Positions 4,389 through 61,653 of a stretch of 64,000 nt of DNA are shown piece after piece; the stretch's first letter is position 1, and each line of letters starts with the position of its first letter. Both the position numbers and the translations under genes were made by a program. Source of the DNA: a bacterium (GTDB lineage Bacteria > Patescibacteriota > Saccharimonadia > Saccharimonadales > AWTP1-31); contig JAUHZB010000004.1 in NCBI GenBank assembly GCA_030426125.1, positions 9,253-73,252 on the forward strand, given 5' to 3'. The notes beneath the pieces were generated by a model. The model did no database searches. It saw only the letters and a program-made list of their open reading frames with translations, and was not told the DNA's origin.

Positions 4389-4425
4389 TGAGGAGATTAT
4401 AACAATATATCTGATCTATATATAA

Positions 4426-8869: not shown

Positions 8870-8875
8870 GCACTT

Positions 8876-21533: not shown

Positions 21534-22289
21534 ATGAGACAAAGATTTGCAAAATACAAACCGGCGACTGGCTACTCCCATTTAATTCATATAGCCTTAA
21601 CTTTGTTACTTCCTGCAATAATTTTTGTTATTGTTCGACTTGGTTTTTATCAACTAGAACTTGGTCTAGCGGTAATACTACTTAGTAAGTGGCGAATTTT
21701 TGCGGTTAAACCTCGTCACTGGCCAGCCAATCTGAGAGTTAATGCAGTTGATCTAATTGTCGGTCTTTCGGTCTTAGTATTTATGGTCCAATCCAGTACT
21801 CAACTACTACAGTTATTCTGGGCTATTATTTATGGTATTTGGCTGCTGTACATTAAGCCAATGTCTAATGTGCAGGGAAGTTCTATTCAGGCACTGATTG
21901 CGATGACATTTGGATTTTCGGCCTTATTTATAGCTCTTGGAGGATCGTCATTATACGTATTAGTAATTTTAGCCTGGCTGTTAGGCTACATGACTTCAAG
22001 GCACTTTTTGATTGCTTTTGAGGAGCCACTAATCAAATATCTGGCATATGTGTGGGCATATTTCTGTGCAGCTCTTACTTGGATTCTAGGTCATTGGCTA
22101 TTGTTCTATGGTCCAATAGCTCAACCAGCTCTATTAATTTCGATTCTTGGATTTGGTTTTAGTGGTATCTACTACCTACATCGATCAGATAAAAGCTCTG
22201 TTATACTAAGAAGGCAAATAGTATTTGTGGTTTTTGCGATTTTGGTTATTATTATCACTTTCTCTGACTGGGGTGATAAAGCTATTTAG
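21534..22289 (+). CDS. Hypothetical polytopic membrane protein
   Basis: 251 aa with about 7 hydrophobic segments and no recognised motif. Confidence 0.55.
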   Translation: MRQRFAKYKPATGYSHLIHIALTLLLPAIIFVIVRLGFYQLELGLAVILLSKWRIFAVKPRHWPANLRVNAVDLIVGLSVLVFMVQSSTQLLQLFWAIIYGIWLLYIKPMSNVQGSSIQALIAMTFGFSALFIALGGSSLYVLVILAWLLGYMTSRHFLIAFEEPLIKYLAYVWAYFCAALTWILGHWLLFYGPIAQPALLISILGFGFSGIYYLHRSDKSSVILRRQIVFVVFAILVIIITFSDWGDKAI

Positions 22290-31105: not shown

Positions 31106-31492
31106 ATGAATCACAGATTATTAAATGACTGCCAAATACTAGTTGAACAAGGATGGACTAGAGCTAGTCAGCAAATCATATTGGGTGAGCAGGATTTTGG
31201 CTACACTGTGCAACGAGAAGGTCAGCAGTTAGCAGACTCAGTTGTCGGTCAAGAGCTTAGCATTAGGGAGCTAAGAGGTGGGGTGGCTTGGGCGAATGCT
31301 CATGACCGGGAGGTTGATCAAGTTATTGGTTCTATGGATAGTCAAAATATTTGTTTTGAAGACCAGCTACAAGCTGTAGCTCGTCGATTAGCACACCATT
31401 CCGGTCGGCTAGCGCTTGATTTAGTTGGGAGTAATCGAAAACGAGACCGCTATATTGCTAGAAGGCGTTTATTGGGTTCAGAAATGGCATAG
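31106..31492 (+). CDS. Hypothetical protein (orphan; GC appears higher than its neighbours)
   Basis: 128-aa ORF with SD aggag 6 nt upstream of the ATG. No recognisable motif. Confidence 0.45.
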   Translation: MNHRLLNDCQILVEQGWTRASQQIILGEQDFGYTVQREGQQLADSVVGQELSIRELRGGVAWANAHDREVDQVIGSMDSQNICFEDQLQAVARRLAHHSGRLALDLVGSNRKRDRYIARRRLLGSEMA

Positions 31493-32855: not shown

Positions 32856-33317
32856 ATGAAGAAACAATACTTATTAACCAAAGAAGGCATCGAAGAATTA
32901 GAGAATGAACACCAGCAATTAACTGCTCAAAGATCAGCAATCGCTGATCGAATTAAGACAGCTAGAGAGTTTGGAGACTTATCTGAAAATGCTGAGTATA
33001 GTGCTGCTCGCCAAGAGCAAGAACGAAATGAATCAAGAATTGCTGAACTGGATAATATCTTAAAAAACGCCGAAGTTATAAAGAAGCCAAAGAAGGGTGA
33101 CTCAGTTTCAGTTGGATCATGCGTAAAGCTAAAAAGTGATAAAGGTAAGGCCAAAGAATACCAGGTTGTTGGTACCGTTGAGGCGGATCCACTTGAAGGT
33201 AAGATATCTGATGAATCTCCAATCGGTAGCTCACTACTAGGCAAGTCGGTTGGCCAGAAGATTGACATTTCAACACCGAATGAGACGGTTACTTACAAAA
33301 TTATCGAGATTTGCTAA
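32856..33317 (+). CDS. greA: Transcription elongation factor GreA
   Basis: LTKEGIEELENE.., GDLSENAEYSAARQEQ, and a C-terminal FKBP-like domain. ATG 32856 has SD aggag at 32845-49. Confidence 0.9.
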   Translation: MKKQYLLTKEGIEELENEHQQLTAQRSAIADRIKTAREFGDLSENAEYSAARQEQERNESRIAELDNILKNAEVIKKPKKGDSVSVGSCVKLKSDKGKAKEYQVVGTVEADPLEGKISDESPIGSSLLGKSVGQKIDISTPNETVTYKIIEIC

Positions 33318-33377
33318 GGACATTGCTGACAAGGCAGGCTTGGTGTAATTAACGGCACTCAGGTATACTAAAGGGCG

Positions 33378-34895
33378 ATGGCAACACTAAAAGAACTGCG
33401 CGATGAGCGTCTAAGAAAATTAGAGGATTTAAAGGAGCTTGGCGTAAACCCATATCCTGCTGAATCGCGAATAAATACCGATATTGCAGAGCTAATCGAG
33501 AATTACTCTAAGTTTGAAAAGAATAAACAGCAATTAGTTGTTGCCGGTCGAATAAAAAACATTCGAAAATTTGGTAAAATTGCTTTCATTGTACTTAAAG
33601 ACAAGACACTGCAATTTCAGCTCTTTTTGAATAGCGAGCGAATTGGTGATCCGGATTACTCTAATAATTTACTAGGATTTAAAGATTTAAATTTATTAGA
33701 TAGTGGTGATTTTATAGAGGTGGTAGGCTTTATCCAGACTTCAAAAACTGGTGAAAAATCTTTAACCGTAGAAAGTCTTAAGTTGCTTTCCAAGAGTTTA
33801 CGGCCACTGCCTAGTGATCAAGATGGGTTTACCAATAAAGAAGAACGTTTGCGGCGTCGTTATGTAGATATTAATGTTAATACTGACGTTTATGAGCGGT
33901 TCGTAAGGCGCAGTAAGTTTTGGCAGGCTACGCGAGATTATCTAAACAAGCACGGCTTTATTGAAATTAATACTCCAGTGCTAGAGCATACCACTGGTGG
34001 CGCTGATGCCAACCCGTTTGTTACTCATATGGATGCTCTGGATCAAGATTTTTATTTAAGAATCAGTCATGAGCTACCTCTAAAGAGGTTGATAGGCGCT
34101 GGTTATGACCGCGTTTATGACATTGGACCACGCTTTAGGAATGAAAACTACACCGATGAGCATCTACCAGAACATGTGGCTATGGAATGGTATGCAGCCT
34201 ACTGGGACTGGAACAAAGGAATGGAATTCATGACCAAGATGTATCAGTACGTTTTAAAGGATACATTTGGCACTTTAAAGTTTGAACTTGGTGATTTTAA
34301 GATAGATCTATCTGGAGAATGGCCAAAGTGGGACTACGCTGAAGTTATACAGAAGCATTACGGACTAGATGTATTCGACTGCAGTTTGGCAGAAGTTAAA
34401 GCTGCCCTAAAGAAACATAAACTAGAGGTTGAACAAACAGAAAACAAGGCTCGTGGCATAGATAAGCTATGGAAAAATATCCGTAAAGACGTTGCTGGTC
34501 CTGTTTGGCTGATAAATACACCACTGTTTATTAGCCCACTGGCAAAAGCCAATCCAGATAATCCTAATACGGTGCAACGTTTCCAGCCAGTTATCGCTGG
34601 TAGTGAGGTCGGAAATGGGTTTAGTGAGTTAAACGACCCTATAGAGCAATTAGATCGTTTCAAAGAACAGCAAGCGATGCGTGACAGTGGTGATGATGAA
34701 GCCATGATGCTGGATATAGATTTTGTAGAAATGTTGGAGTACGGAATGCCACCGGCTTGTGGTTGGGGTTTTAGTGAGCGTGTGTTCTGGATATTTGAAG
34801 GGGTTAGCGCTCGAGAAGGAGTGCCTTTCCCTCAGCTTAGAAGCGAAGTAGATAATGTAACTAAGACTATTTACCCCGATTTAAAATTAAAATAA
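33378..34895 (+). CDS. lysS: Lysyl-tRNA synthetase, class II
   Basis: OB-fold N-terminus, RRRYVD, FRNE, and motif 3 context GMPPACGWGFSERV. Confidence 0.95.
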   Translation: MATLKELRDERLRKLEDLKELGVNPYPAESRINTDIAELIENYSKFEKNKQQLVVAGRIKNIRKFGKIAFIVLKDKTLQFQLFLNSERIGDPDYSNNLLGFKDLNLLDSGDFIEVVGFIQTSKTGEKSLTVESLKLLSKSLRPLPSDQDGFTNKEERLRRRYVDINVNTDVYERFVRRSKFWQATRDYLNKHGFIEINTPVLEHTTGGADANPFVTHMDALDQDFYLRISHELPLKRLIGAGYDRVYDIGPRFRNENYTDEHLPEHVAMEWYAAYWDWNKGMEFMTKMYQYVLKDTFGTLKFELGDFKIDLSGEWPKWDYAEVIQKHYGLDVFDCSLAEVKAALKKHKLEVEQTENKARGIDKLWKNIRKDVAGPVWLINTPLFISPLAKANPDNPNTVQRFQPVIAGSEVGNGFSELNDPIEQLDRFKEQQAMRDSGDDEAMMLDIDFVEMLEYGMPPACGWGFSERVFWIFEGVSAREGVPFPQLRSEVDNVTKTIYPDLKLK

Positions 34896-34918
34896 CTAAC
34901 ATAGTTAAGGAGTAGGAT

Positions 34919-35224
34919 ATGAAAGTTCTTTGGAAGGGCAAGCAAATCGCCGAAGCTAAGAAAGAAGACTTAATATATATAGAAGGAAATTGGTATTTTC
35001 CACCAGAGTCTCTTGATGGCGATTATCTAAAAAAGTCGGACACGCCTTACGTCTGTCCTTGGAAGGGCAAATGCCAATACTTTGACGTTGGTCAGGACGG
35101 CGACTACAGCGCTGATCACGCCTTTAGTTATCCGAAGCCAATTCCGACGGCCCTAGATCGTGTCAAAAAGGACTTCTCTAATTACTTAGTTTTCTCAGGA
35201 CAAGATATAGAAATACAGGAGTAG
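34919..35224 (+). CDS. DUF427-domain protein
   Basis: 101 aa; GNWYFP..., CPWKGKCQYFDV is typical of DUF427. Confidence 0.7.
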   Translation: MKVLWKGKQIAEAKKEDLIYIEGNWYFPPESLDGDYLKKSDTPYVCPWKGKCQYFDVGQDGDYSADHAFSYPKPIPTALDRVKKDFSNYLVFSGQDIEIQE

Positions 35225-35226
35225 AT

Positions 35227-35750
35227 ATGCATACTAGCATTGTGCTCGGAGGGGGTTGTTTCTGGTGCTTAGAGGCATCCTACCAGCTGATAAAGGGAGT
35301 GGTAGTGTTACCCCGGGATACGCCGGTGGTGATACTAAGAACCCAGATTATTACTCTGTAGGAACTAAAACCACCGGACACGCAGAAGTGGTCAAAGTAG
35401 TTTTTGATCCAGCAGTAATTCAGCTTGTAGATGTATTGGACGTGTTTTGGTTAATACATGATCCAACTTCACTGAATAAGCAGGGCAATGATGTTGGACC
35501 TCAGTATAGATCAATAATTTTATTCAAAGATGATCAGCAGAAGAAGATAATTGAGTCTTCGATAAAAAAAGTTCAACCGCTGCATAACAAAGCTATTGTT
35601 ACCGAAGTTAAGATGCTGGATAGATTTTATGAAGCTGAGCCTGAGCATCATAATTATTTTAAGAATCATCCTCAGCAGGCCTACTGTCAGCTGACAATAA
35701 ATCCAAAATTAGCTAAGCTTAGGGAGAAGTATAAGACCTTGCTTCGATAA
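35227..35750 (+). pseudogene. msrA: Peptide-methionine (S)-S-oxide reductase MsrA, interrupted by a 1-nt frameshift
   Basis: ATG 35227 opens frame A, which encodes MHTSIVLGGGCFWCLEASYQLIKGV (the catalytic GCFWC) and then runs to TAG 35359-61. The rest of MsrA (SVTPGYAGGDTKNPDY..TGHAEVVKVVFDP..) is in the -1 frame (ORF 35256..35750). The frames switch near 35299-35304. Confidence 0.8.
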
Positions 35751-35772
35751 CTAATTACCAATCGGTAGTTAT

Positions 35773-36423
35773 CTATATTTGCTTAGCTTCTACAACGTAG
35801 CGCTCAGCAGTGCTACCTAGTGGATAGCAGGTGTACATAGTTAGTTTATTCTCTACGTTGGGATCATTGTTGCGGATCTCGATTTGATCTGGAGAAACTG
35901 TTTTAGAATTAAATACCTCATAAGTATAGACCTGGTCTTGCCATTTAATATAGATCTTATCGCCGTTCTGTAATTCAGTTAGATTATAGAAATGCCCACC
36001 GTTTACAGCAGTGTATATAAAACGGTGTCCAGCCACCACTATATTGCCAGGCGTCGATGGATCAATACTGGCTGACTCTCTCCATACTCCTTGGTTTCGT
36101 CCAATAACGTTGACGTTATCACCCTCAAGAATTTCAGCATTAACGCCAATTTGCGGTAAGACAAGACGGTTTCCTTTTTGGTTATCAACCTCTGGTGAGG
36201 ATTGACCATCAGCCGCTTTCTGGTAAGGTTCGGAGTTAATTTGCGGCTTGGTCAGTAGATACCAGAGCCTTGGCAGATAGGGCATTACTAACACAAACAG
36301 ACTAATTAGAGCCACAATCGATAGAATAATTATTGATGGTTTTGGTCTTTTTTTGTCAGGACTTAGATCACTTTTTGTAGTCTTAGTAGACTGTTTCTTG
36401 AATTTATTAGGTAAGCGTTTCAT
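35773..36423 (-). CDS. Sortase-family transpeptidase
   Basis: N-terminal TM anchor, VVAGHRF (His), TMYTCYP (TLxTC Cys) and AERYVV (Arg). Confidence 0.8.
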   Translation of the reverse strand: MKRLPNKFKKQSTKTTKSDLSPDKKRPKPSIIILSIVALISLFVLVMPYLPRLWYLLTKPQINSEPYQKAADGQSSPEVDNQKGNRLVLPQIGVNAEILEGDNVNVIGRNQGVWRESASIDPSTPGNIVVAGHRFIYTAVNGGHFYNLTELQNGDKIYIKWQDQVYTYEVFNSKTVSPDQIEIRNNDPNVENKLTMYTCYPLGSTAERYVVEAKQI

Positions 36424-36528
36424 CAGAATTAAAGTATAGCACCAATTGGGTGGTTGGTGTTTAATCTTTTTTGTGGATATTTTTGTTCCTAAAACTAGTT
36501 ATTGGTTAAAGTATGCTATAGTTTGGAC

Positions 36529-37344
36529 ATGAAATTACTAAACAATTTAACTAAGAAATCTTCTAAAAAAATAACCTTGCAGTCACTAAACAAATGGAAC
36601 AAGGTTCTAGCTGGACTGCACGCCGTTCAGGCCTTAGCTATTATAATACTTAGTAGTAGTGTTGCTTGGCCGGTGGTGACCAATTTTCTAACTTTAGACA
36701 GTGTCGCTAGTGAAATTTCAGGAGAACCAGTATTAGCTAGTGCTAGTCGGGAAATTTTCTCAGTTAATCTAGGTTATCTAGTGGCCGTATTCTTTATCAT
36801 GTCGTCAATTGCTCATCTTCTGGTAGCCACAAAACTACGAAAAAGCTATGAAGCAAATCTAAAGAAGGGCATAAATAAAGTCCGCTGGATTGAGTATGCT
36901 TTCAGCGCCAGTACTATGATGGTGGCTATTGGTCTGCTTAGTGGAATTAACGATATTGCCTCCATAGTGATGCTGTTTAGCTTAGTGCTGATTATGAATC
37001 TAATGGGTCTGGTGATGGAGATAGTCAACAGTAACAAGGCCAAGATCGATTGGTTAAGCTATAACATTGGATGCTACGCCGGTATTATCCCGTGGGTTGT
37101 TTTTGCAATTTATGTATGGGGAGCAACTTTCTATGGATCTAGTGGTATTCCAACTTTCGTTTATTGGATTTATCTAAGCATCTTCCTGTTCTTTAATAGC
37201 TTTGCTGTGAATATGTACCTTCAATACAAGAAAAAAGGCAGGTGGTCTGACTATTTATACGGTGAGCGAACTTACATGATACTTAGTTTAGTAGCAAAAA
37301 GTGCACTAGCTTGGCAGGTGTTTGCTGGAACACTTCGTCCGTAG
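36529..37344 (+). CDS. Heliorhodopsin
   Basis: Seven TM helices with full-length by-eye similarity to heliorhodopsin 48C12. Matching segments are RWIEY (Glu codon 36892-94), FLFFNSFAVNMYLQYKKKGRWSDYLYGERTYMILSLVAKSALAWQVFAGTL (Lys codon 37297-99) and a basic N-terminus. Start placed at ATG 36529, 6 nt after the extended -10 TGcTATAGT. Confidence 0.85.
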   Translation: MKLLNNLTKKSSKKITLQSLNKWNKVLAGLHAVQALAIIILSSSVAWPVVTNFLTLDSVASEISGEPVLASASREIFSVNLGYLVAVFFIMSSIAHLLVATKLRKSYEANLKKGINKVRWIEYAFSASTMMVAIGLLSGINDIASIVMLFSLVLIMNLMGLVMEIVNSNKAKIDWLSYNIGCYAGIIPWVVFAIYVWGATFYGSSGIPTFVYWIYLSIFLFFNSFAVNMYLQYKKKGRWSDYLYGERTYMILSLVAKSALAWQVFAGTLRP

Positions 37345-37373
37345 TATAAGGGTTAGGTAAGTAGTATAAGTTT

Positions 37374-38075
37374 ATGAAGGTTCATCGTTTTTATACCCCT
37401 GATGTAAGCTTGGATAAAAATATATGGGTGCGCGATTCCGGTTTGTTGAAGCAATGGCTTAAGGTGTTACGCTTCAGGCTTGGGCAACAGGTTGTGCTAT
37501 TCGATGGCAAGCAGCGTGATCGGCTGTATAAAATAATTGAAATAAATTCTAATGAAGTGAACCTTGAAATGGTTACCGATTTTGAGCCTAAACTACCAAA
37601 GCGTGATATATATCTATTTTGGTCGGTACTAAAGAAAGATAAAAATGAATGGATAGCCCAAAAAACTACTGAGCTAGGCGTCTCGCACTTGGTTCCACTG
37701 ATAGCAAGCAGGTCAGAAAAAACCAATGTAAATATAGACAGATTGCGCAAAATATCTATAGAAGCTACGGAACAATGCGGTAGGAGCGATATAGTTAGTA
37801 TTAGGGAGCCACTGACAGTAGAAAAAGCCTTAGAGCAATACGCAGGTAAGCTAGATATGTTTGTTTGTGAACAAGGCGCTAGTAGCCTGAATGAAGTCGA
37901 CAGTTCAACAAGCCCAGATAATCCGTTAGGTTTGTTGGTAGGTCCAGAGGGCGGCTGGACAGAGTCGGAGTTGGAGATGTTTGATGAACGCGGAATCAAG
38001 AAGTTTGGACTCCACGACTTTACGTTGCGGGCAGAAACGGCGGCCATTTCAGCGGTTGCAGTAATGATGCAGTAA
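37374..38075 (+). CDS. rsmE: 16S rRNA (uracil1498-N3)-methyltransferase RsmE
   Basis: MKVHRFY N-terminus, PUA-like N-domain, and a C-terminal SPOUT knot (LLVGPEGGWTESE..LRAETAAI). Confidence 0.85.
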   Translation: MKVHRFYTPDVSLDKNIWVRDSGLLKQWLKVLRFRLGQQVVLFDGKQRDRLYKIIEINSNEVNLEMVTDFEPKLPKRDIYLFWSVLKKDKNEWIAQKTTELGVSHLVPLIASRSEKTNVNIDRLRKISIEATEQCGRSDIVSIREPLTVEKALEQYAGKLDMFVCEQGASSLNEVDSSTSPDNPLGLLVGPEGGWTESELEMFDERGIKKFGLHDFTLRAETAAISAVAVMMQ

Positions 38076-38147
38076 CTTGTTTTTTTAATAAATTGAAAGT
38101 TTATATAACATCAATAACATAGGCATAATACTGCTACAATACAATCT

Positions 38148-38933
38148 ATGAACTATTGGAGACAGCGCAGTAAGCCATACCAAGTTGGCCAGAAAGAAGC
38201 TTTCAAGGTTAGTCGTAGTAAGATTGAATTGTTTATGCAGTGTAAACGCTGTTTTTGGCTAGACGTCAGACTTAAAATTACTCGGCCAAACACCCCACCT
38301 TTCAACATTAATAAAGCGATCGATGAGTTATTCAAGAAAGAGTTTGATAAGCACCGCCAGCAGGGAACCCCTCATCCAATAATGGAGCAAAACGATGTTA
38401 AAGCGATTCCGATGCAACATGAACAGCTTGATGATTGGCGCTATAATTTTACCGGTGTGACTACTGTTCATAAGCTAACCAACTTACATGTTTTCGGCGC
38501 TATTGATGATCTTTGGGTGGATGATGATGGCAATATGATAGTCGTCGACTACAAGGCTACTGCTAAAGACAAACCAGTAAGTATTGATTCAGATTGGCAG
38601 ATTAGCTATAAAAGGCAAATTGAGGTGTACCAGTGGTTGTTGCGAAGCAATGGTTACAAAGTTAGCAATACTGGCTATTTTGTATATACCAACGGACGGT
38701 TGGATTTAGACGGCTTCCATGATCGTTTAGAATTCAAAACTACATTAATCCCTTATGAGGGTGATGACAGCTGGGTAGAGCCAGCATTAAAGAAGATGAA
38801 GAAGTGTATGGACGGAGACATGCCAGCTGTCGGCAAAGCTGCAATGGGCGGAGAGTGTGATTATTGTAGCTATGCAAAAAAACGCACCTTGCTAACTATA
38901 GAACACATCAAAAAGCCTAAAAAAAGATCGTAA
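38148..38933 (+). CDS. PD-(D/E)XK nuclease, Cas4/RecB-like, with Cys residues suggesting an Fe-S cluster
   Basis: N-terminal SRSKIELFMQCKRCFWL, core IVVDYKAT, QIEVYQWLL (QxxxY), and C-terminal CMDGD..GGECDYCSY. No CRISPR or cas genes are nearby. Confidence 0.7.
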   Translation: MNYWRQRSKPYQVGQKEAFKVSRSKIELFMQCKRCFWLDVRLKITRPNTPPFNINKAIDELFKKEFDKHRQQGTPHPIMEQNDVKAIPMQHEQLDDWRYNFTGVTTVHKLTNLHVFGAIDDLWVDDDGNMIVVDYKATAKDKPVSIDSDWQISYKRQIEVYQWLLRSNGYKVSNTGYFVYTNGRLDLDGFHDRLEFKTTLIPYEGDDSWVEPALKKMKKCMDGDMPAVGKAAMGGECDYCSYAKKRTLLTIEHIKKPKKRS

Positions 38934-38954
38934 ATTTAAGGTATAATTAGTTAT

Positions 38955-40250
38955 ATGTTAGATATTCAGTATATTCGAGATAACCCTAAGCTAGTAAAAG
39001 ATAAATCACAGCAAAAAGGCTACAAAGTTGACGTAGATAAACTATTGCAGCTAGATCAAGATAGGAAGAAGATCCAGTCTGAACTCCAAGACTTAAGAGC
39101 CAAGCGGAATAGTCATAGTGGGAGTCTAGCTGGTGTAAAGCCTAGCGATCAGCAGATCAGCATCGGTAAGCAATTTAAAGAAGATATTGCTAAGCTTGAG
39201 GATCTGTTAGGGCCAGTAGACCAACAATTCAATGAGCTACTTAAAACAGTACCAAACATGCCACTAGATGATGTACCAGTTGGTGACAGCGAAGAAGATA
39301 ACCAGGTGGTGAAAACAGTTGGAGAAATACCTGAGTTCGATTTCAAGCCGAAAAATCATGCCCAGATCGCTGAAGCGAAGGGCTGGCTGGATAAAACCAG
39401 AGCAGCAAAAGTAGCTGGCAGTCGTTTCGCTTATCTAAAAGGCGATTTAGTGCTACTCGACTGGGCAATGAATATGTTTGCGTTGTCTAAGTTAACTGAT
39501 CAGCAGTTCATCGCTGACCTGGTGAAGGCCAATAATCTAAATATTAGCAGTAAACCATTTGTGGCAGTACAGCCACCGGCAGTAGCCAAGACTAAGGTTT
39601 TCGAAGCTACTGGACGGTTAAACAAGGAAGAGCAAACCTATAAGCTAGAGGATGAAGATCTATGGTTAAACGCTTCGGCTGAACATGTCTTAGCGCCAAT
39701 GTTTTTAGATGAAATTGTGCCTATTGAAGAGCTACCTATAAGATTGGTCGGCTACACTACGGCCTTCAGAAGAGAGGCCGGCACTTACGGTAAGGATATG
39801 GAAGGCATTTTTAGGTTGCATCAGTTTAATAAACTGGAAATGGAAGGTTTTAGCGATTCAGAGACAGGGCTCGGTGAACACATGTTATATATCGCCATTC
39901 AGGAAAGTCTGTTTACAGCATTAGAACTACCGTATAAGTTACTTAATAAGTGTACAGCCGACATTGGTGGACCAAATGCTCGTGGTGTCGATATTGATGT
40001 TTGGCTACCGGGCCAAGGTAGGTACCGCGAATCGCATACCGCAGATTATATGACAGATTTCCAAACCAGGAGTATGAAGAGTCGTTATAGGGATGAGCAG
40101 GGAAATATTAACTTGCTTCACACTAATGATGCCACAGTCTTCTCTCAGAGACCGTTAATTGCGATTATCGAAAATTATCAAACAAAGGATGGAGATGTAG
40201 TAATTCCAAAAGTATTAAGGCCATTTATGGGCGGTAGGGAGAAAATATGA
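38955..40250 (+). CDS. serS: Seryl-tRNA synthetase
   Basis: MLDIQYIRDNP, coiled-coil arm, FRREAGTYGKDMEGIFRLHQF, TNDATVFSQRPLIA. Confidence 0.95.
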   Translation: MLDIQYIRDNPKLVKDKSQQKGYKVDVDKLLQLDQDRKKIQSELQDLRAKRNSHSGSLAGVKPSDQQISIGKQFKEDIAKLEDLLGPVDQQFNELLKTVPNMPLDDVPVGDSEEDNQVVKTVGEIPEFDFKPKNHAQIAEAKGWLDKTRAAKVAGSRFAYLKGDLVLLDWAMNMFALSKLTDQQFIADLVKANNLNISSKPFVAVQPPAVAKTKVFEATGRLNKEEQTYKLEDEDLWLNASAEHVLAPMFLDEIVPIEELPIRLVGYTTAFRREAGTYGKDMEGIFRLHQFNKLEMEGFSDSETGLGEHMLYIAIQESLFTALELPYKLLNKCTADIGGPNARGVDIDVWLPGQGRYRESHTADYMTDFQTRSMKSRYRDEQGNINLLHTNDATVFSQRPLIAIIENYQTKDGDVVIPKVLRPFMGGREKI

Positions 40251-40618
40251 TCAACAATATAACTATTAACGGTCTTCATACTGAAGTAACTGATGAGTTG
40301 AAAAAGTATATCAATAAGAAAATCGGTAAATTAGATCGTTACCTACCAGTTCATGCTCGCAAGTCGGTGCAAGTGGACGTTAAGTTGAAGGAACGAAAAA
40401 TTAAAGCCCACACTGAATGTATGGCTGAGGTCATTATGCGCTTACCAAAGGAAACAATCACTTCTAAAGAAACCACTGTTAATTTATTTGCAGCCATAGA
40501 TGTTAGTGAAGAGAAGTTAAAGAATCAGATCAAAAAATACAAGGCTAAGCATGGCCCAGGCCGGATTCATCAGAGGGTACTGGCTAGATTAAAGCGTAGA
40601 TCCCCCAAGCTTAGTTAG
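40247..40618 (+). CDS. hpf: Ribosome hibernation factor (short HPF/RaiA family)
   Basis: ITINGLHTEVTDELKKYINKKIGKLDRY matches the S30AE/sigma-54 modulation protein pattern. It is 123 aa with no C-terminal dimerisation domain. Confidence 0.8.
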   Translation: MINNITINGLHTEVTDELKKYINKKIGKLDRYLPVHARKSVQVDVKLKERKIKAHTECMAEVIMRLPKETITSKETTVNLFAAIDVSEEKLKNQIKKYKAKHGPGRIHQRVLARLKRRSPKLS

Positions 40619-40730
40619 AATTGTTGCTTCTACAGCAAACAGTAAAAATTACTTTTAAATCAGATTGCATAATGCGCTACAATGGTTGTTGTATCACGAG
40701 AGATTACCACAAGTAGATAAAGGAAGATTA

Positions 40731-43340
40731 ATGAAGACAGTTATAAAAAAGATATTAGGTGACCCTCAGGCTAAAACAGTTAAGCGACTTCGAAAGCGAG
40801 TTAAAGACATAAACGTACTTGAAGATAAGTATAAAAAAATGTCGGACAGCAAGTTAAAGCAACAGACAGCTGAATTTAAAAAACGCTTAGCTAAAGAATC
40901 GCTTGATCAAATAATGCCCGAAGCTTTTGCAGTAGTTAGAGAAGTTGCTAGCCGAACGCTGGGAATGCGGCATTTTGATGTGCAGATGATCGGTGCTATG
41001 GCCTTGCACGAGGGAAGTGTTGCTGAAATGAAAACCGGTGAAGGAAAGACTTTGGTTGCTACAGCGCCAGTATATCTAAATGCACTTGAGGGCAAGGGTG
41101 TTCACGTTGTTACCGTAAACGATTATCTAGCTCAACGTGATGCCGGATGGATGTCCGAAATCTATAGTTTCCTAGGCTTAACTACAGGGGTAATTATCGC
41201 CGATGAATCGTATATATACGACAGTAGCTACAATAATGAAAAACATGATGACCCCAGACTAAAGCATCTAAAGCCATGTACTAGGCAGGAGGCTTACCAA
41301 GCAGACATTACTTATGGCACAAACAATGAATTCGGCTTTGATTATCTACGCGATAACATGGTTAGAGAGGTTGAGCAGTTAAGGCAAAGAGAGCTAAATT
41401 ACGCGATTGTTGATGAGGTTGACTCGATTCTTATTGATGAGGCTAGGACACCGCTAATTATCTCTGCACCGGCCAGTACTAGTGGTAATGCCTATGCTCA
41501 ATTTGCTAAGGTTGCTCGAACCCTTAAACCCGATGTCCATTACGAGGTAGATGAGAAGCAGAAGGCTTCAGTTTTAACTGATGAGGGTGTTGAATTCCTA
41601 GAAAAAACACTGGGTATAGATAACCTATACGGAAGTGACAATATTCGGACTATTTACCACCTTGATCAAGCCATTAAGGCTCAGAGCTTATTCAAGAAAG
41701 ATAAAGACTACGTTATTAGTAGCGACGGAGAAATAGTAATCGTCGATGAGTTTACTGGTCGTTTGTTAAAGGGGCGTAGATATAACGAAGGGTTGCACCA
41801 GGCCATTGAAGCTAAGGAAGGTGTAGAAGTCCAAGAAGAGTCGATGACTCTAGCTACGATTAGTTTCCAGAATTACTTCCGCTTATACAATAAATTATCT
41901 GGTATGACCGGTACTGCCAAGACTGAAAGTGAAGAATTCCACCAGATATATAAACTAGATGTACTAGAAATTCCTTCCAACCGTCCGCTAGCTAGGGTTG
42001 ATAGAGCCGATAGAATCTATAAAAGCGAAGCTGGTAAGTTTAAAGCCATAGCCAAAGAGGTCAAGCTGTTGCACCAAAAAGGTCAGCCGGTACTAATTGG
42101 TACAGTATCTATCGAAAAGAACGAAGAGTTGAGTCGACTTCTAAAAAAAGCTGGTGTTCCGCATAGCATTCTTAATGCTAAGAACAATGAGAAGGAGGCA
42201 GCTACTGTAGCTAAAGCTGGTCAATCAGGAAGTGTAACCCTAGCAACTAACATTGCTGGTCGTGGTACAGATATTGTTCTTGATGAAGAGGTTAAGAAAA
42301 AGGGCGGTTTGTTTGTGCTGGGTAGCGAAAGGCATGAATCTAGACGAATCGATAACCAGTTAAGAGGTCGTTCCGGTCGTCAGGGTGATCCTGGTGTTAC
42401 TCAATTCTTTGTAAGTACTGAAGATGATCTGATGCGAATTTTTGGTGGAGACAGAATTTCGAGTGTGATGGATCGGTTAAATGTAGACGACGAAACTCCG
42501 ATTGAAAATAGGATTATATCCAAGAGCCTAGAGTCAGCTCAGAAAAAAGTTGAAGGCCATAACTTTGATCAGCGTAAGAATGTCGTTAAGTATGATGACG
42601 TTATGAACCGGCACCGTAAGGCCACCTATAGTATGAGGCGGGAAATACTAAACCAGCCGAACATTAGTAAACGAATACAAATATTGATCAAAGAAGAGGC
42701 AAAACAACTGGCTAATTCTCCATTAGCGACCTCTGAACACTTCGAAGCAATCCTAAAAGAAGTGTTCCCATTCGATGAGAAGACTTTAGATAAATTGTTC
42801 GACCAAACCGCAGAAAAATTTGAGGAAGAATTAAAAAGCCAAGCTAGCAAACTTTACTCAGAAAGAGAGAAGTTATTTGGCGCTGATGATCTTCGAAAAA
42901 TAGAGCGAGATATATATCTGCAGATCCTAGATAATCTTTGGATGCAACACCTTGAAAACATGGATCATATGCGTGAAGGTATTCACTGGATAAGTGTCGG
43001 GCAGAGAGACCCGCTTGTTGAGTACCGAAGACAGGGTCAGCGAATGTTTGAAGAGATGCAGGCAACTCTCCGGCACGATGTAGTGCGAGCTCTGTTTAAC
43101 GCTGAACCAGCCGACATTGATGAAGCCCCAGTTGAAACTGATTTGACGGTAGCTGCTCGTAAGTCGGTAGATAACGCCGATAAAATAATTGAAGCTGATG
43201 AGTTTAGCGAAGAAGATTTCGTGAAGAGTGGGCAGAAGAAGGGTGGAACCAAAAAGATAGTTTCCTCTGCTAGTCGGAAGAAAGCTAATAAAGCGGAACG
43301 CAAAAGAAGAAAAAAAGCCAAAAGATCAAAGAAGCGCTAA
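40731..43340 (+). CDS. secA: Preprotein translocase ATPase SecA
   Basis: MKTGEGKTLVA Walker A, DEVDSILIDEARTPLIIS, TNIAGRGTDI, GRSGRQGDPG. ATG 40731 has SD aaggaag; the ORF-track N-terminal extension is discounted. Confidence 0.95.
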   Translation: MKTVIKKILGDPQAKTVKRLRKRVKDINVLEDKYKKMSDSKLKQQTAEFKKRLAKESLDQIMPEAFAVVREVASRTLGMRHFDVQMIGAMALHEGSVAEMKTGEGKTLVATAPVYLNALEGKGVHVVTVNDYLAQRDAGWMSEIYSFLGLTTGVIIADESYIYDSSYNNEKHDDPRLKHLKPCTRQEAYQADITYGTNNEFGFDYLRDNMVREVEQLRQRELNYAIVDEVDSILIDEARTPLIISAPASTSGNAYAQFAKVARTLKPDVHYEVDEKQKASVLTDEGVEFLEKTLGIDNLYGSDNIRTIYHLDQAIKAQSLFKKDKDYVISSDGEIVIVDEFTGRLLKGRRYNEGLHQAIEAKEGVEVQEESMTLATISFQNYFRLYNKLSGMTGTAKTESEEFHQIYKLDVLEIPSNRPLARVDRADRIYKSEAGKFKAIAKEVKLLHQKGQPVLIGTVSIEKNEELSRLLKKAGVPHSILNAKNNEKEAATVAKAGQSGSVTLATNIAGRGTDIVLDEEVKKKGGLFVLGSERHESRRIDNQLRGRSGRQGDPGVTQFFVSTEDDLMRIFGGDRISSVMDRLNVDDETPIENRIISKSLESAQKKVEGHNFDQRKNVVKYDDVMNRHRKATYSMRREILNQPNISKRIQILIKEEAKQLANSPLATSEHFEAILKEVFPFDEKTLDKLFDQTAEKFEEELKSQASKLYSEREKLFGADDLRKIERDIYLQILDNLWMQHLENMDHMREGIHWISVGQRDPLVEYRRQGQRMFEEMQATLRHDVVRALFNAEPADIDEAPVETDLTVAARKSVDNADKIIEADEFSEEDFVKSGQKKGGTKKIVSSASRKKANKAERKRRKKAKRSKKR

Positions 43341-43346
43341 CAAGTA

Positions 43347-44678
43347 ATGAGGCATAAAGTTGAGCATATTAAACTAGCCAATGGGGCTGAGGGTTTGCTA
43401 ATAAACATACCCGGTGCTTCGGTAATGAGTTTTGACTTTAACTTTCGAGCCGGTGAGTATTTGTCTGAGCGTCATAAGTGGGAGACTGCTCACCTTATGG
43501 AGCATCTGCTACTGGGGGCTAATCAGTTATTACCTTCGGCTACTGCTTTTCATGCTGAATTCGAGAAAAACGGGGCTTACAATAACGCTTCAACTAGCAG
43601 TTATGATATTAATTATGAAGCAGAATGTGCTGACTTCGAATGGGACAGAATTCTAGGTTTACTACTAACTGCAATATCCAAACCACTATTTTTAGAAGAT
43701 GAGTTTAAGGCTGAGTTTGGCAATGTTAAAGAAGAGTTAGCGGCCCGGTCGAATAACCATTTTAGGCACCTAGGACTGGCTACTAGAGAAAGTTTTGGAT
43801 TTCTGGCAGTGACAGATCAGGAAAGGTTAAATCTAATGAATAACGTTAAGCTGAAAGACGTTATTGATCATTACCAGGCTACTCACCAAACTAGTAATCT
43901 ACGGTTTATAATCGCTGGAAATCTGAAAGTTTCGCGTAAAACAGCGATCAAGAAACTGTTAGCAAATATTGAATTACCAGTAGGTGAGGGGCGTAGACAA
44001 CTGCCGGATGAAATGCCCAGTAAATATAATAAGCCGTTATATATCCAAAACGACACTGTTGAAAATATATATTTCTATATCGACACTTTTCGCTCAACTA
44101 AGCTTAGTGACACCGAATATGATAATTTAAGCCTAATAAATACTATGCTTACCGAAAGCCTATACTCAATGATACTGGGGACGGCCCGCGAACGTGGCCT
44201 GGTTTACTCGATGAGTTCCGGCATTAGTCAGTCAAAATTATCGGCCAACTGGTGGTTTGGAGCCCAGATATCACCCAAGAACATCCCGCAACTGTTCGAT
44301 ATTATCGTTGAAAAAATTAATGACGTATTTGCCGGTAAGATTACTCAGGATGACATTAATGCAGCTAAACAGTATGCACTAGGGAAGTATCAACGTAGTG
44401 GGCAGACGGTTGGTGGAGTAGCAAATGGTTATAGTTTCCGTTATTTCTTCGATGAGACAATAGAGGACTACTATAAGATACCAGATCGTATTGAAGCAAT
44501 AACTAAGCAAGATATTGTTTACGTATCTCGGTCATTATTCACAGATAAGATTTGGGGTCTAGGGGTTCTAGGTAATGTAAGCCAAGATTTTATAGATGAT
44601 CTTAATAGTCGCATCAGCCCACTCTGGAGTTACGATAACGATAGTGATCAATCTGAGGAATCTCTAGCGAAATCCTAG
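43347..44678 (+). CDS. M16-family (pitrilysin/insulinase-like) zinc peptidase
   Basis: Inverted zinc motif HLMEH (HxxEH) near the N-terminus; 443-aa two-lobed layout. Confidence 0.75.
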   Translation: MRHKVEHIKLANGAEGLLINIPGASVMSFDFNFRAGEYLSERHKWETAHLMEHLLLGANQLLPSATAFHAEFEKNGAYNNASTSSYDINYEAECADFEWDRILGLLLTAISKPLFLEDEFKAEFGNVKEELAARSNNHFRHLGLATRESFGFLAVTDQERLNLMNNVKLKDVIDHYQATHQTSNLRFIIAGNLKVSRKTAIKKLLANIELPVGEGRRQLPDEMPSKYNKPLYIQNDTVENIYFYIDTFRSTKLSDTEYDNLSLINTMLTESLYSMILGTARERGLVYSMSSGISQSKLSANWWFGAQISPKNIPQLFDIIVEKINDVFAGKITQDDINAAKQYALGKYQRSGQTVGGVANGYSFRYFFDETIEDYYKIPDRIEAITKQDIVYVSRSLFTDKIWGLGVLGNVSQDFIDDLNSRISPLWSYDNDSDQSEESLAKS

Positions 44679-44718
44679 ATTTGTCTTCAGTATAGTTTCT
44701 AGACTATACTGCCTGAGT

Positions 44719-45804: not shown

Positions 45805-45858
45805 AAATAGCACTAATAAACATAAGCAAATAAGCGGTATTTTGCTATACTAGGTTAT

Positions 45859-51775: not shown

Positions 51776-52162
51776 ATGGAAGAACAAACTAAAAAGCACA
51801 AAATATTACTAGTAGAAGATGATGATGCCTTAGCTAGTGTTTACCAAACTCGTTTGCAGGCCGAAGGCTTCGATATAAAGCGAGAGCCAAATGGCGAGCA
51901 AGCACTTGATAGTGCAAAAGAATATAAGCCGGACCTAATTGTATTAGATGTAATGATGCCTAAAGTTAGCGGTTTTGACGTTCTAGATATCCTTAAAAAC
52001 ACTCCGGAGACTGCAAACATTAAGATTGTGATGCTTACAGCTCTTAGTCAGGATAGCGACAAGGAAAGAGCTCAAAGCCTAGGCGCCGATGATTACTTGG
52101 TTAAATCTCAAGTTGTTATTGCTGACGTTGTTGAGAAGATTAAGCAACATTTAGCTGCTTAA
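51776..52162 (+). CDS. Stand-alone response-regulator receiver domain (canonical)
   Basis: LLVEDDD, LIVLDVMMP (Asp acceptor), MLTAL, YLVKS. No output domain and no kinase gene adjacent. Confidence 0.85.
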   Translation: MEEQTKKHKILLVEDDDALASVYQTRLQAEGFDIKREPNGEQALDSAKEYKPDLIVLDVMMPKVSGFDVLDILKNTPETANIKIVMLTALSQDSDKERAQSLGADDYLVKSQVVIADVVEKIKQHLAA

Positions 52163-52308: not shown

Positions 52309-52608
52309 ATGAGTAGCGAAATGCCACCAATACAACCAGCAGATCAACAGCCTGTAGCAGACCCAAATCAGGTTGCTGAACAAGAAACACAAGGACAGCA
52401 ACCAGCCGAATATACTCCACAAGATGATGGATTAGATAGTCTTTTTGATCCTAAGCACGAGGGTAGTGTTGAAGCTGCTGCAAGAGATCCACGACCTACT
52501 CCCGATCCTGCAGCAATTGAAGCTCAGCAACAAATGGATGTATCGGCAGCTGACCGTTTAAATAGAGAAGATGCCGGTTTGGATCCAAGAGTTCATGATC
52601 TGACATAG
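52309..52608 (+). CDS. Hypothetical acidic P/Q/D/A-rich, probably disordered small protein
   Basis: 99-aa ORF with an SD-like aaggaa 7 nt upstream, its own promoter and its own terminator. No motif recognised. Confidence 0.45.
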   Translation: MSSEMPPIQPADQQPVADPNQVAEQETQGQQPAEYTPQDDGLDSLFDPKHEGSVEAAARDPRPTPDPAAIEAQQQMDVSAADRLNREDAGLDPRVHDLT

Positions 52609-56689: not shown

Positions 56690-57352
56690 ATGAAAAGATT
56701 AAATAACTCTGGTAAGGTTGATGTCTGGTTAATCGGTTTTATTCTGACAACTTTGCTATTTATTGGGGCCTCTAGCTTTGCCGTCTGGGCCTATATGGGT
56801 CGTCAGGACTACAAGGATAACGTCGATCAGAAAATTAGCGTGGCGGTTAAAGAGGCTAATGAAGAGCTTGAAGCTAAAAAAGAAGCCGAGTTTATCGAGC
56901 GAGAGAAGAAACCACTTAGAACCTATAACGGTCCGGCTGCTTACGGTAGTTTAACTGTAAAGTATCCAAAAACCTGGTCTGTTTACGCTGATGAGACAGG
57001 CAGTGGTGGTACAGCTGTAAGTGGCTATATGCAGCCGAAATTTGTTCCGGGCATTAAATCTGGTAATAACTACGCGCTACGCTTTGAGGTCGTGGAGCGA
57101 GATTATGCATCTGAGGTGAAGAAGCTAGCTGACGGAGTTAAAAAGGGCACAGTTAGAGCAAAACCTTATCGTTCCAAGAGTGATCCCAGCAGTATTGGAA
57201 TGCGCTACGAAGGTGAGATTGCTAAAGACAAGCAAGGTGTACTGATACTATTACCACTTAGAGATAAAACTATTAGATTGTGGACCGAAGCCAATCAGTT
57301 TGTAGGTGATTACAATACAATAATCTTGCCGAACTTTAGTTACATTCCTTAG
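56690..57352 (+). CDS. Hypothetical N-terminally membrane-anchored extracytoplasmic protein
   Basis: One TM segment (VWLIGFILTTLLFIGASSFAVWAY) followed by a ~180-aa soluble domain with no recognised motif. Confidence 0.55.
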   Translation: MKRLNNSGKVDVWLIGFILTTLLFIGASSFAVWAYMGRQDYKDNVDQKISVAVKEANEELEAKKEAEFIEREKKPLRTYNGPAAYGSLTVKYPKTWSVYADETGSGGTAVSGYMQPKFVPGIKSGNNYALRFEVVERDYASEVKKLADGVKKGTVRAKPYRSKSDPSSIGMRYEGEIAKDKQGVLILLPLRDKTIRLWTEANQFVGDYNTIILPNFSYIP

Positions 57353-57473
57353 GTCAGTTAACTCGTCACAAAACAATAAATTACAATAGCTTAGCTGCGC
57401 CTAAATGCTATACTACCCAGTACACACGAGATGTAAGCACAATATAACCAAAGATAATGGGGCAGAGGGATTT

Positions 57474-58220
57474 ATGGATCAACTAGCTAAGAGTAAATGG
57501 CTAAATGAACAAAAAATGTATTCAGCTTCAAACGATGCTTCATTACCGATATTTACCTATATAGCTGAGAATCTGCGCAGTGAACTCCACAAGTTTAGCT
57601 CTGGTGTCGAATATGCCCAGATTACAGGGGATCTCAAGGGGTTAGATGGGCCAAAATACTCCGCTCAAGCAATGCTTAAATTGATAGAATGTTATCTAGA
57701 TTACATCGATCAAGTGGAGTCTTTTAAGCAAACAGAACCAGTTTCATTATCTGCTTTATTATCTTCTGTTATGTCGTCTATGAGTGGTTTTGCTAATTGG
57801 CAACAGTGTGATTTAGATCTGCAGGTTATGGGAAAATATCAGCCTGTTATGGCAAATCGGGAAGTATTAAAGACAGTGTTAACTAGCTTGAGCAGTATAT
57901 TAATACTGGCGCAGAGTGAGATCGTCCACCGCACAAGACCAGTAGTAACTTTTGTAGTCAGAAAGACAAAAGCAGGCATTTCAGCTGGCATCTATTCCAG
58001 TGTCAATGCAATCGATAGTAAAACTTTAAAAACAGCTCGCCAGCTTTACGGCAAACCAGGCAATCCAACTAGTAAGTCGCTTAGTAATGGCAGTGCCGGG
58101 CTGTTTATGGCTGATTCATTGCTGGGAAAAATGTCAAATGGGCTAAAGGTATCGAAGTTTAATAATATGCAAGGGCTATCTGCTAATTTTGAAGTAAGTC
58201 AGCAGATTGCTTTAGTGTAG
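57474..58220 (+). CDS. Cytoplasmic histidine-kinase-like protein with degenerate H-box and ATP-binding boxes (putative pseudokinase)
   Basis: IAENLRSEL aligns by eye with the H-box SHELRTPL (Glu-Asn in place of Ser-His). ANREVLKTVLTSLSSIL aligns with the N-box but has no Asn. NGSAGLFMADSLLGKMSNG resembles a G2 box. ATG 57474 has SD gaggga. Weak, by-eye call. Confidence 0.4.
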   Translation: MDQLAKSKWLNEQKMYSASNDASLPIFTYIAENLRSELHKFSSGVEYAQITGDLKGLDGPKYSAQAMLKLIECYLDYIDQVESFKQTEPVSLSALLSSVMSSMSGFANWQQCDLDLQVMGKYQPVMANREVLKTVLTSLSSILILAQSEIVHRTRPVVTFVVRKTKAGISAGIYSSVNAIDSKTLKTARQLYGKPGNPTSKSLSNGSAGLFMADSLLGKMSNGLKVSKFNNMQGLSANFEVSQQIALV

Positions 58221-58225: not shown

Positions 58226-58600
58226 ATGAAAAAGATACTGATCGTGGAACCAGATAATGAACTAGGTAAACAGTATCAAAGTTTAGTTATCGGGCAGGGT
58301 TACCAAGCAAAGCTGGCTCAAAGTTCTGATGATGCTCTGAGTCTGATCGATAGCTATTCTCCGGATGTAGTTGTTTTGGAACTGCAGATGATTGAGCACA
58401 ATGGCTTGGAGCTACTATATGAGCTCAGGTCATACGTGGACTGGGATGATATCAAGATAGTATTGAATACCTCCGTGAAACAGTCTTTACTAAAAAAGTC
58501 GCCAGTTTACAGTCGGCTAAATATAGCCAAATACCTGTATAAACCCGACACCCCGCCCAGCAAATTATTAAGCGCTATCGAATCGGTTGTTAGTAGTTAG
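58226..58600 (+). CDS. Stand-alone receiver-domain protein with Glu at the phospho-acceptor position (pseudo-receiver)
   Basis: The CheY-like fold text is conserved (ILIVEPDN; NGLELLYELR; IVLNTS; YLYKP), but the acceptor site reads VVVLELQM (D to E). Confidence 0.75.
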   Translation: MKKILIVEPDNELGKQYQSLVIGQGYQAKLAQSSDDALSLIDSYSPDVVVLELQMIEHNGLELLYELRSYVDWDDIKIVLNTSVKQSLLKKSPVYSRLNIAKYLYKPDTPPSKLLSAIESVVSS

Positions 58601-59289: not shown

Positions 59290-59314
59290 CTTCAGAGGTG
59301 TTATAATTAGGCAT

Positions 59315-61221: not shown

Positions 61222-61653
61222 ATGAAATTACAGTTTAGCCCCCAGCTAACACCAAAAGAGATGTTAGATCTAGGAGTGTTTGGCGGAAATTATTTTCCTC
61301 ATATACCAGAAGAATTTCCAGCAGAATGGTTTAGTAACGCTCGGCTAAGTAGTGATGGTAAAGCGCACAGTGAACTCAATTTCTTCGAGGTGGTGGCCAG
61401 TCAACCGCGGAGTGTCTGGCTGGCCAAAGGCTGGATTGATGAAGTTGACCCTTTAGGATGGTTCCAGTGGTACTGTCGTTACTTTCAGGGTAGGCGAATT
61501 CCAGAGATAGATAATAAACAGATTAAACGTTGGAAGGCGATGCGCCGGCATATTGCTCAGATTACAAAAAACTGCCAGAAGCAAGATTTAACATGTCGTC
61601 GACGACAAAGACAGGCGTTACTTCATTGGGCCTATGACAGCCGCAAGATATAG
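61222..61653 (+). CDS. Conserved hypothetical protein
   Basis: 143 aa. GVFGGNYF.., DPLGWFQWYCRYFQGRR, QIKRW and RQRQALLHWAYD look like a widespread uncharacterised family I cannot name. Confidence 0.55.
   Translation: MKLQFSPQLTPKEMLDLGVFGGNYFPHIPEEFPAEWFSNARLSSDGKAHSELNFFEVVASQPRSVWLAKGWIDEVDPLGWFQWYCRYFQGRRIPEIDNKQIKRWKAMRRHIAQITKNCQKQDLTCRRRQRQALLHWAYDSRKI

Follow-up and report, generated by a model that had tools for sequence, protein, structure and literature searches.

A typical Saccharibacterial heliorhodopsin with probable dependence on borrowed retinal

The heliorhodopsin gene and its functional residues

A 64,000-nt stretch of contig JAUHZB010000004.1 (the window; all reported positions are those of the whole stretch) carries a gene for a heliorhodopsin (HeR), which runs from an ATG at 36529 to a stop codon ending at 37344 and lies between a divergently transcribed sortase gene and rsmE, with a DUF427 gene and a frameshifted msrA farther upstream (Table 1). 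The 271-aa product matches Pfam family PF18761 over the entire profile (positions 1-242 of 242; E 4.9e-87; 291.7 bits against a cut-off of 26.7) and the NCBIfam equivalog NF038020 likewise (1-244 of 244; 301 bits against a cut-off of 100), and among proteins in the PDB it matches the heliorhodopsins TaHeR (6is6, E 1.5e-66) and 48C12 (6su3, E 1.7e-51). Matches of this kind are far beyond chance, and by these comparisons the gene is a genuine, intact and full-length heliorhodopsin. We think it fairly probable that the protein is a functional, vertically inherited Saccharibacterial HeR that uses borrowed retinal and, when triggered by light, modulates a partner without pumping ions.

An earlier reading of the stretch from its letters alone (the sequence-only reading) had named a heliorhodopsin along the whole length of open reading frame (ORF) 36529..37344, with a KKSSKK tail, LAGLHAVQALAIIIL, RWIEY and GRWSDYLYGERTYMILSLVAKSALAWQVFAGTL. 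The profile searches and the alignments to TaHeR and 48C12 bear out the identity, and the window sequence contains the 271-aa frame as well as every quoted motif, including Glu122 in RWIEY (36892-94) and Lys257 in GRWSDYLYGERTYMILSLVAKSALAWQVFAGTL (37297-99). The fold is settled by homology to three solved structures. The structure prediction that the same reading had asked for was also run; the single-sequence AlphaFold2 model has seven long helices, but with a predicted local distance difference test score (pLDDT) of 48.9 and a predicted template-modelling score (pTM) of 0.32 it is too poor to judge the Lys/Glu geometry, and it was not used for geometry or for a fold search.

Comparison with the characterized proteins places the window HeR closest to TaHeR. 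TaHeR, from Thermoplasmatales archaeon SG8-52-1 (PDB 6is6, 7clj and 7u55), is 46% identical over 248 aligned residues and has in common with it the Lys of SLVAK, the Glu of RW(F/I)EY, both His residues and the six residues Y, C, G, F, N and A of a lateral fenestration. The two differ in that the host of TaHeR is archaeal and that of the window HeR bacterial, and in that the window HeR is longer by five residues between helices 5 and 6 and by six after helix 1 and has a more basic N-terminal tail. The founding member of the family, 48C12, which stems from an actinobacterial fosmid, is less close to the window HeR than TaHeR is (about 43% identity, taken from the essentially identical PDB sequence 9ljj), but its homology is full-length and its counterion Glu and Schiff-base Lys align with those of the window protein.

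Relatives were collected by scanning one genome per species, which yielded 404, and the orthologue counts given here rest on the best 80 of these. The 80 are 56-79% identical to the window HeR, the closest species representative being L001 at 79%, and nearly all come from Candidatus Saccharibacteria metagenome-assembled genomes (MAGs). An HeR with 57% identity is also encoded on the closed 669-kb Saccharibacteria chromosome OZ246413.1. Residue conservation was counted over 82 aligned rows, made up of the window HeR and 81 Saccharibacterial HeR ORFs. The counterion position is Glu in 81 of these rows and Asp in the remaining one, and in the SxxxK motif of transmembrane helix (TM) 7 the Ser is present in 82/82 rows and the Lys in 81/82. 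Two conserved His residues, His31 and His96, occupy what we take to be the positions of His23 and His80 in 48C12.

The fenestration residues were taken from a 2025 preprint (bioRxiv 10.1101/2025.11.27.691015) that names Y164, N204 and A207 in TaHeR and numbers the rest as in Cv06 or 48C12; C168, G171 and F203, as numbered here for TaHeR, are our own mapping through the 6is6 alignment and not the numbering of the preprint. Five of the window residues correspond to the five of the preprint (TaHeR Y164, G171, F203, N204 and A207) and Cys182 corresponds to the aligned TaHeR Cys, so that at the level of sequence all six positions are identical to their TaHeR counterparts. They are well conserved across the 82 rows, with Y or F at position 178, G185 in 80 rows, and F222 and A226 in 81 each. 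These six matches lead us to predict an opening in the apoprotein that admits external retinal.

The basic N-terminus noted in the sequence-only reading, and its fit to an inverted topology, hold up in the distribution of charges. Specifically, the N-terminal tail has seven K/R and no D/E, the loop at residues 51-80 has one K/R and four D/E, and the loop at residues 100-118 is rich in K/R. By the positive-inside rule this charge pattern indicates the inverted, N-in orientation; together with alignment to the three solved HeR structures it predicts seven helices with the N terminus in the cytoplasm.

Some HeRs among the relatives carry a cytoplasmic N-terminal extension of 50-60 aa in which Lys, Ser, Thr and Ala strongly predominate and which resembles a tail of the histone H1 type (L036 175-1155, L041 9806-10789, L044 5467-6426, L046 9851-10810, L052 9836-10786, L055 9794-10783 and L057 9818-10765). 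The window HeR has the short TKKSSKK only.

Table 1. Features of the heliorhodopsin locus and of the window, in window positions
Feature	Position	Strand	Description
Heliorhodopsin coding sequence	36529..37344	+	271 aa; predicted 7-TM protein with cytoplasmic N terminus; PF18761 and NF038020
His31 codon, TM1	36619..36621	+	Aligns with conserved TM1 His of TaHeR; His in 81/82 rows
His96 codon, TM2	36814..36816	+	Aligns with conserved TM2 His of TaHeR; His in 81/82 rows
Glu122 codon (RWIEY), TM3	36892..36894	+	Schiff-base counterion position; TaHeR Glu108 (RWFEY), 48C12 Glu107
SLVAK motif, TM7	37285..37299	+	Ser253 and retinal Schiff-base Lys257 (37297-99), by TaHeR alignment (K238)
Lateral fenestration residues	37060..37206	+	Tyr178, Cys182, Gly185, Phe222, Asn223, Ala226; ungapped alignment to 6is6
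Extended -10 element of HeR	36514..36522	+	TGCTATAGT, read directly; followed by 6 nt (TTGGAC), then ATG
Extended -10 element of sortase	36441 to 36433	-	TGCTATACT; 9 nt before sortase ATG; inverted pair with HeR -10
Sortase	35773..36423	-	PF04203, E 2.5e-26; divergent from HeR
msrA (peptide methionine sulfoxide reductase), frameshifted	35227..35750	+	1-nt deletion at about 35302-35304
DUF427 (PF04248)	34919..35224	+	Pfam E 3.4e-18; upstream of HeR in 27/80 loci, often preceding msrA
HeR-rsmE spacer	37345..37373	+	29 bp; holds second copy of direct repeat GTAGTATAAG
rsmE (16S rRNA U1498 methyltransferase)	37374..38075	+	PF04452, E 2.1e-41; NCBIfam RsmE family
-10-like boxes, first set	def 4389-4400; priA 6382-6395; ftsA 8860-8875; lysS 33362-33377		
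-10-like boxes, second set	serS 38939-38954; prfB 44703-44718; ftsE 45843-45858; glyS-like 59299-59314		
ORFs without Pfam match	893-2371; 21534-22289; 31106-31492; 52309-52608; 56690-57352; 57405-58220; 61222-61653		

Promoter, chromosomal slot and inheritance

An extended -10 element 6 nt before the ATG had been taken in the sequence-only reading to imply a leaderless mRNA, and most of the relatives share this layout. From the last T of the element to the A of the ATG is a distance of 7 nt, and reading upstream of the gene revealed no Shine-Dalgarno motif. In 50 of 76 orthologues the start codon is preceded at 6-7 nt by the pattern TGnTAnnnT, as against about 0.17% by chance; the commonest hexamer, TATAGT, is identical to that of the window, and in the aligned upstream regions the box is the sole conserved block besides the -10 on the sortase side. 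The conserved position identifies 36529 as the true start codon and speaks for a leaderless transcript, whose first nucleotide would lie at or beside the start codon. An alternative start at TTG 36502 (280 aa) was rejected, as it is upstream of the conserved box and the ATGs of the orthologues are 6-7 nt past it.

Leaderless mRNAs seem to be common in this Saccharibacterium, and thus no peculiarity of the HeR gene, to judge from the boxes ahead of other genes. Across the window, a -10-like box stands 5-9 nt ahead of the start in 15 of 65 genes, compared with an expected 6.7% (p = 1.9e-5), and the boxes that we read (TATAAT- or TATACT-like) come without a Shine-Dalgarno motif, one weak case at 51776 excepted. 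No description of this was found in the searchable literature that pairs 'leaderless' with Saccharibacteria or Patescibacteria.

In the relatives, the sortase and HeR -10 boxes stand back to back within 49-67 bp and nothing else between them is conserved, which suggests that both promoters are simple and unregulated. A conserved operator between them was considered and rejected, since the two -10 boxes are all that is kept and a palindrome at 36440-36459 occurs in this strain alone. The palindrome forms part of a terminator-like element, AGCACCAATTGGGTGGTTGGTGTT followed by a T-rich run (about 36438-36461), and sits in extra intergenic sequence that has no counterpart in the relatives, the spacer here being about 105 bp as against 49-67 bp in most orthologues.

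The genes around the HeR follow an order common to most of the 80 loci: UppS-RseP-Rce1-ProRS-GreA-LysRS, a variable stretch, the HeR, a second variable stretch, and then PD-(D/E)XK nuclease-SerRS-HPF-SecA-M16 peptidase-RF2. The local context that the sequence-only reading had called unusual is therefore a conserved housekeeping backbone and the standard arrangement in this lineage, and the Saccharibacterial origin that it had proposed agrees both with the identity of the relatives and with the synteny of the flanking genes. The G+C content of the HeR gene (39.3%) matches that of the window (40.7%). Judged by shared gene order and composition, the HeR has long occupied a fixed chromosomal slot, has been inherited vertically and is no recent import; horizontal transfer was rejected in view of the normal composition and fixed syntenic position.

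The slot is not always filled. Versions of the backbone without an HeR were found in metagenomes (for example L083, L089, L105 and L106), in which LysRS is followed directly by RsmE or a HAD hydrolase; these loci mostly lack msrA too. Because such copies exist, the HeR behaves as a dispensable, probably habitat-dependent presence/absence gene in a stable slot.

The host falls among the monoderms, as its Saccharibacteria/Patescibacteria relatives and the sortase adjoining the HeR indicate, and no outer-membrane families were seen among the Pfam-scanned ORFs of the window. In a published survey HeRs are confined to monoderms, with Patescibacteria among the HeR-bearing phyla (PMC8612252). Logan contigs from runs ERR3420974 and SRR24442557 match window positions 33238-37045 and 37032-44250 at 100% identity, so the same strain is recovered under two separate run accessions; SRR24442557 is a commercial biofloc aquaculture metagenome (PMC10582022). 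An exact-sequence look-up did not find the window HeR in the record as a called protein, and the matching Logan contig stops inside the gene.

Neighbouring genes

The DUF427 gene and the frameshifted msrA that had been reported upstream are present at 34919-35224 and 35227-35750, as is the divergently transcribed sortase (35773-36423, minus strand). The N-terminal part of MsrA, MHTSIVLGGGCFWCLEASYQLIKGV, is read from 35227 in one frame and the remainder, SVTPGYAGG..., in another, which parts the catalytic GCFWC motif from the rest of the enzyme. The base is missing at a site that is not a homopolymer, and the identical frameshift is present in the independent Logan assembly of SRR24442557 (3808/3808 nt identical); this recurrence in another run indicates that msrA here is probably a true pseudogene and no assembly error. 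A programmed frameshift is unlikely, as the site has no slippery run.

In the relatives, an intact msrA lies upstream of the HeR on the same strand in 34 of the 80 loci, adjoining it directly in 10 and separated from it only by the divergent sortase in 15. Two types of MsrA, about 40% identical to each other, occupy this position, one with the active site GCFWC (19 loci) and one with GCFWG (14 loci); examples are at L032 9438-9956, L074 6308-6820 and L009 8947-9426. Mapped onto the HeR tree, adjacency to msrA undergoes at least 14 changes of state. We found no joint mention of heliorhodopsin and methionine sulfoxide reductase in the searchable literature, and none of MsrA, sortase, DUF427 and RsmE is among the ten groups of HeR neighbours described in PMC11109279. 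The sortase itself is above the cut-off of the general NCBIfam sortase model and below those of the class models, and its divergent arrangement recurs in 15 of the 80 loci.

Downstream, rsmE follows the HeR after 29 bp, as the sequence-only reading had stated in suggesting that the two might be co-transcribed. We found no terminator-like hairpin in this spacer, so co-transcription is possible, but a functional meaning does not follow, since the gene directly downstream differs among orthologues: a HAD hydrolase in 22, a TrmA-like methyltransferase in 13, RsmE in 9 and others in about 31. It is thus very unlikely that HeR and rsmE form a functional operon through which light controls 16S rRNA methylation or ribosome maturation. 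The short spacer without a terminator-like site, and the nine loci with RsmE within 32 bp after the HeR, would fit such an operon; the interchangeable neighbour, the retention of RsmE in the backbone of HeR-less relatives such as L105 and L106 and a -10-like box of its own, TAGTAT, 6 nt before the rsmE ATG, speak against it. By these patterns rsmE is an interchangeable housekeeping neighbour and no conserved partner, with no functional link to the HeR seen. The TAGTAT box is supplied by the second copy of an exact 10-nt direct repeat, GTAGTATAAG, found at 37341-37350 and 37361-37370, the first copy of which overlaps the HeR stop codon.

Proposed retinal source and mode of action

The search for retinal genes consisted of a Pfam scan of the roughly 66 ORFs of the window. 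It returned no phytoene synthase or desaturase, lycopene cyclase, crt, Blh or carotenoid oxygenase, in agreement with the earlier statement that the 64 kb hold no crt or blh-type genes, and no Bac_rhodopsin domain; the only prenyl enzyme in the window is undecaprenyl-diphosphate synthase. The content of the window is housekeeping (translation factors, aminoacyl-tRNA synthetases, FtsA/FtsZ, ParAB, SecA, ribonucleotide reductase and CTP synthase). Retinal or carotenoid families are likewise absent from the recurrent HeR neighbours within about 4.5 kb in the 80 orthologous loci, which are a MacB-type ABC transporter, a zincin-like peptidase, DUF427, MsrA, sortase, HAD hydrolase, TrmA-like methyltransferase and RsmE, all unrelated to retinal, and retinal genes are absent from the neighbours in 19 loci beyond the backbone.

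The observation of an HeR without chromophore genes nearby therefore stands, but the source of its retinal is not the new puzzle that the sequence-only reading had made of it, because HeRs are documented as frequent in Saccharimonadia (PMC9166423) and a 2022 paper posed the retinal question for Saccharibacteria and gave part of the answer (PMC9296517). Rhodopsin-carrying Saccharibacteria lack blh, and a retinal auxotrophy met by host-derived retinal has been proposed for them, with co-occurring Actinobacteria as the source; their rhodopsins absorb externally supplied retinal within 30 s, in which they are comparable to heliorhodopsin (PMC9296517). The same paper cites the uptake of exogenous retinal of the TaHeR type and describes the source organism of TaHeR as likewise without a retinal pathway. 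These Saccharibacterial type-1 rhodopsins (SacR) resemble the window HeR in phylum, in being retinal proteins without blh and in their proposed fast retinal uptake, and they differ from it in being outward proton pumps of another family with the opposite membrane orientation (PMC9296517). SacR-carrying MAGs encode heliorhodopsins as well (PMC9166423).

In the reading that we favour, the HeR mRNA would be leaderless and probably constitutive, with possible read-through into rsmE, and the apoprotein would insert with its N terminus in the cytoplasm. In keeping with what is established for the family, it would bind all-trans-retinal at Lys257, the retinal not being made by the cell and instead taken from the host or the surroundings through a lateral opening of the TaHeR type. 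Light would isomerise the retinal and shift the Schiff-base proton toward the Glu122/His region, where it would stay within the protein, and a long-lived intermediate would alter the cytoplasmic surface and so modulate a partner protein, with no ion pumping. For such transducer-less action through the product of an adjacent gene, the models are the pairs AbHeR-glutamine synthetase, TfHeR-photolyase and OcHeR-OmrDE ABC transporter, in which the partner is reported to be regulated by direct binding of the HeR; none of the glutamine synthetase, photolyase or OmrDE genes adjoins the window HeR. The best contextual lead for the output would be protection from oxidative damage caused by light, or its repair, since in this lineage msrA recurs upstream and is the one recurrent neighbour with an obvious link to light. 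This fits the sensory or oxidative-stress role proposed for HeRs generally (PMC8612252) and for those of the Candidate Phyla Radiation (CPR) (PMC9166423).

The missing retinal pathway in the 64 kb and the decaying msrA next door could mark the HeR as an inactive relic whose apoprotein never receives retinal in this organism. We regard this as highly improbable, given that the ORF is intact, that 81 of 82 sequences, only 56-79% identical overall, retain the Lys, the Glu, both His and the residues of the retinal pocket, and that the promoter element is conserved too. There is similarly very little to recommend light-gated proton transport of the kind attributed to the viral heliorhodopsin V2HeR3. 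Transport has been demonstrated for one viral HeR (eLife 2022), but the transporting HeRs fall within subfamily 2, which is mostly viral and lacks the fenestration motif (bioRxiv 10.1101/2025.11.27.691015), a motif that the window HeR has.

The same motif bears on a two-antenna light-harvesting HeR, which would hold an external xanthophyll at the lateral fenestration in the outer leaflet and serve an undefined transport or energetic function, with no role as a sensor. All six fenestration/carotenoid-site positions match TaHeR residue for residue, the preprint reports that 91.3% of HeRs have the site and associates it with monoderm hosts (bioRxiv 10.1101/2025.11.27.691015), and a 3.8-kb stretch of the locus is 100% identical in the biofloc aquaculture metagenome. 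We nevertheless consider this function rather unlikely for the window HeR: the proposal comes from a preprint and is built on docking and sequence statistics, we found in the texts consulted no bacterial HeR with shown carotenoid binding or energy transfer, and the same opening has also been proposed as the entry route for retinal (PMC9296517).

A more specific version of the oxidative-damage lead would pair the HeR, as light sensor, with the MsrA encoded upstream in a module for photo-oxidative damage, and this we judge unlikely. Modelled on the action of HeRs upon glutamine synthetase or photolyase, the retinal-loaded HeR would bind MsrA in the light and either stimulate it or bring it to the membrane; the two MsrA types and the at least 14 state changes would reflect selection keeping the pair together, and the frameshift in this strain would be a recent loss. 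For the long-standing question of the signalling targets of heliorhodopsins, MsrA supplies a concrete candidate.

Several points weigh against a light-triggered, partner-modulating HeR with borrowed retinal. No histidine kinase or transducer adjoins the HeR and no histidine kinase is visible in the 64-kb window, where two receiver-only response regulators lie 14-21 kb away from it. The search for retinal genes covers 64 kb, and a pathway could still lie elsewhere in the genome of this strain. The 2025 preprint favours a light-harvesting role with a carotenoid antenna (bioRxiv 10.1101/2025.11.27.691015). As for msrA, it is absent near the HeR in the 19 loci beyond the backbone, its adjacency is inseparable from inherited gene order, which leaves the link to the HeR weak, and the comparison of msrA presence with HeR presence, made against HeR-less copies of the backbone from metagenomes, has about a dozen informative loci, too few for statistics, and goes in the expected direction but is not significant. 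Because msrA is a pseudogene in this strain, the HeR here cannot depend on it.

Within its family the window HeR is a typical, ordinary example, and HeRs that borrow retinal have already been described as common in Saccharibacteria. Of 1326 CPR genomes surveyed in 2022, 86 carried rhodopsins, 115 in all; 80 of these rhodopsins were HeRs of Saccharimonadia, with SLVAK among the commonest TM7 motifs of CPR HeRs (PMC9166423). The published freshwater Saccharimonadia/CPR HeRs (PMC9166423, PMC8612252) share its lineage, inverted topology and SLVAK motif; the species-representative Saccharibacterial HeRs have a gene neighbourhood in common with it, from which the window differs in its frameshifted msrA. 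Given the match to the equivalog NF038020, standard annotation would label the gene automatically. The window HeR is thus one further sequence in a published family and opens no new question. What goes beyond the searchable literature amounts to small points, namely the conservation of the leaderless promoter, the fixed slot from which the HeR may be present or absent, the recurrence of msrA nearby and the msrA pseudogene of this strain. As a compact test case the protein offers 271 aa, a minimal promoter, an episymbiont host and probable dependence on borrowed retinal.

Some further features of the window and of the related loci were noted. No structured RNAs or tRNAs in the window reached threshold. 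Seven window ORFs (99-492 aa) have no Pfam match, and at E <= 1 six of them still give nothing, the exception being 21534-22289 with a sub-threshold match to DUF6170 (E 0.062). Stand-alone receiver proteins without an output domain are encoded at 51776-52162 and 58226-58600, and the Pfam-less ORF 57405-58220 precedes the second.

In the 19 loci beyond the conserved backbone, the neighbours of the HeR are heterogeneous (DUF378 in four, HxlR in three and NUDIX in three). An ORF of 70-72 aa directly adjoins the HeR in four of these loci (L035 9761-9979, L048 8728-8943, L064 6196-6411 and L066 10876-11088); it is probably DUF378 (PF04070), a family that four neighbour proteins, not told apart, matched in a pooled scan. 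On the backbone itself, the LysRS slot holds a class I enzyme in 15 loci and a class II enzyme in 28, including the window (for example, L015 4985-6520 versus window 33378-34895 and L019 4782-6302), a difference that resembles replacement in place.

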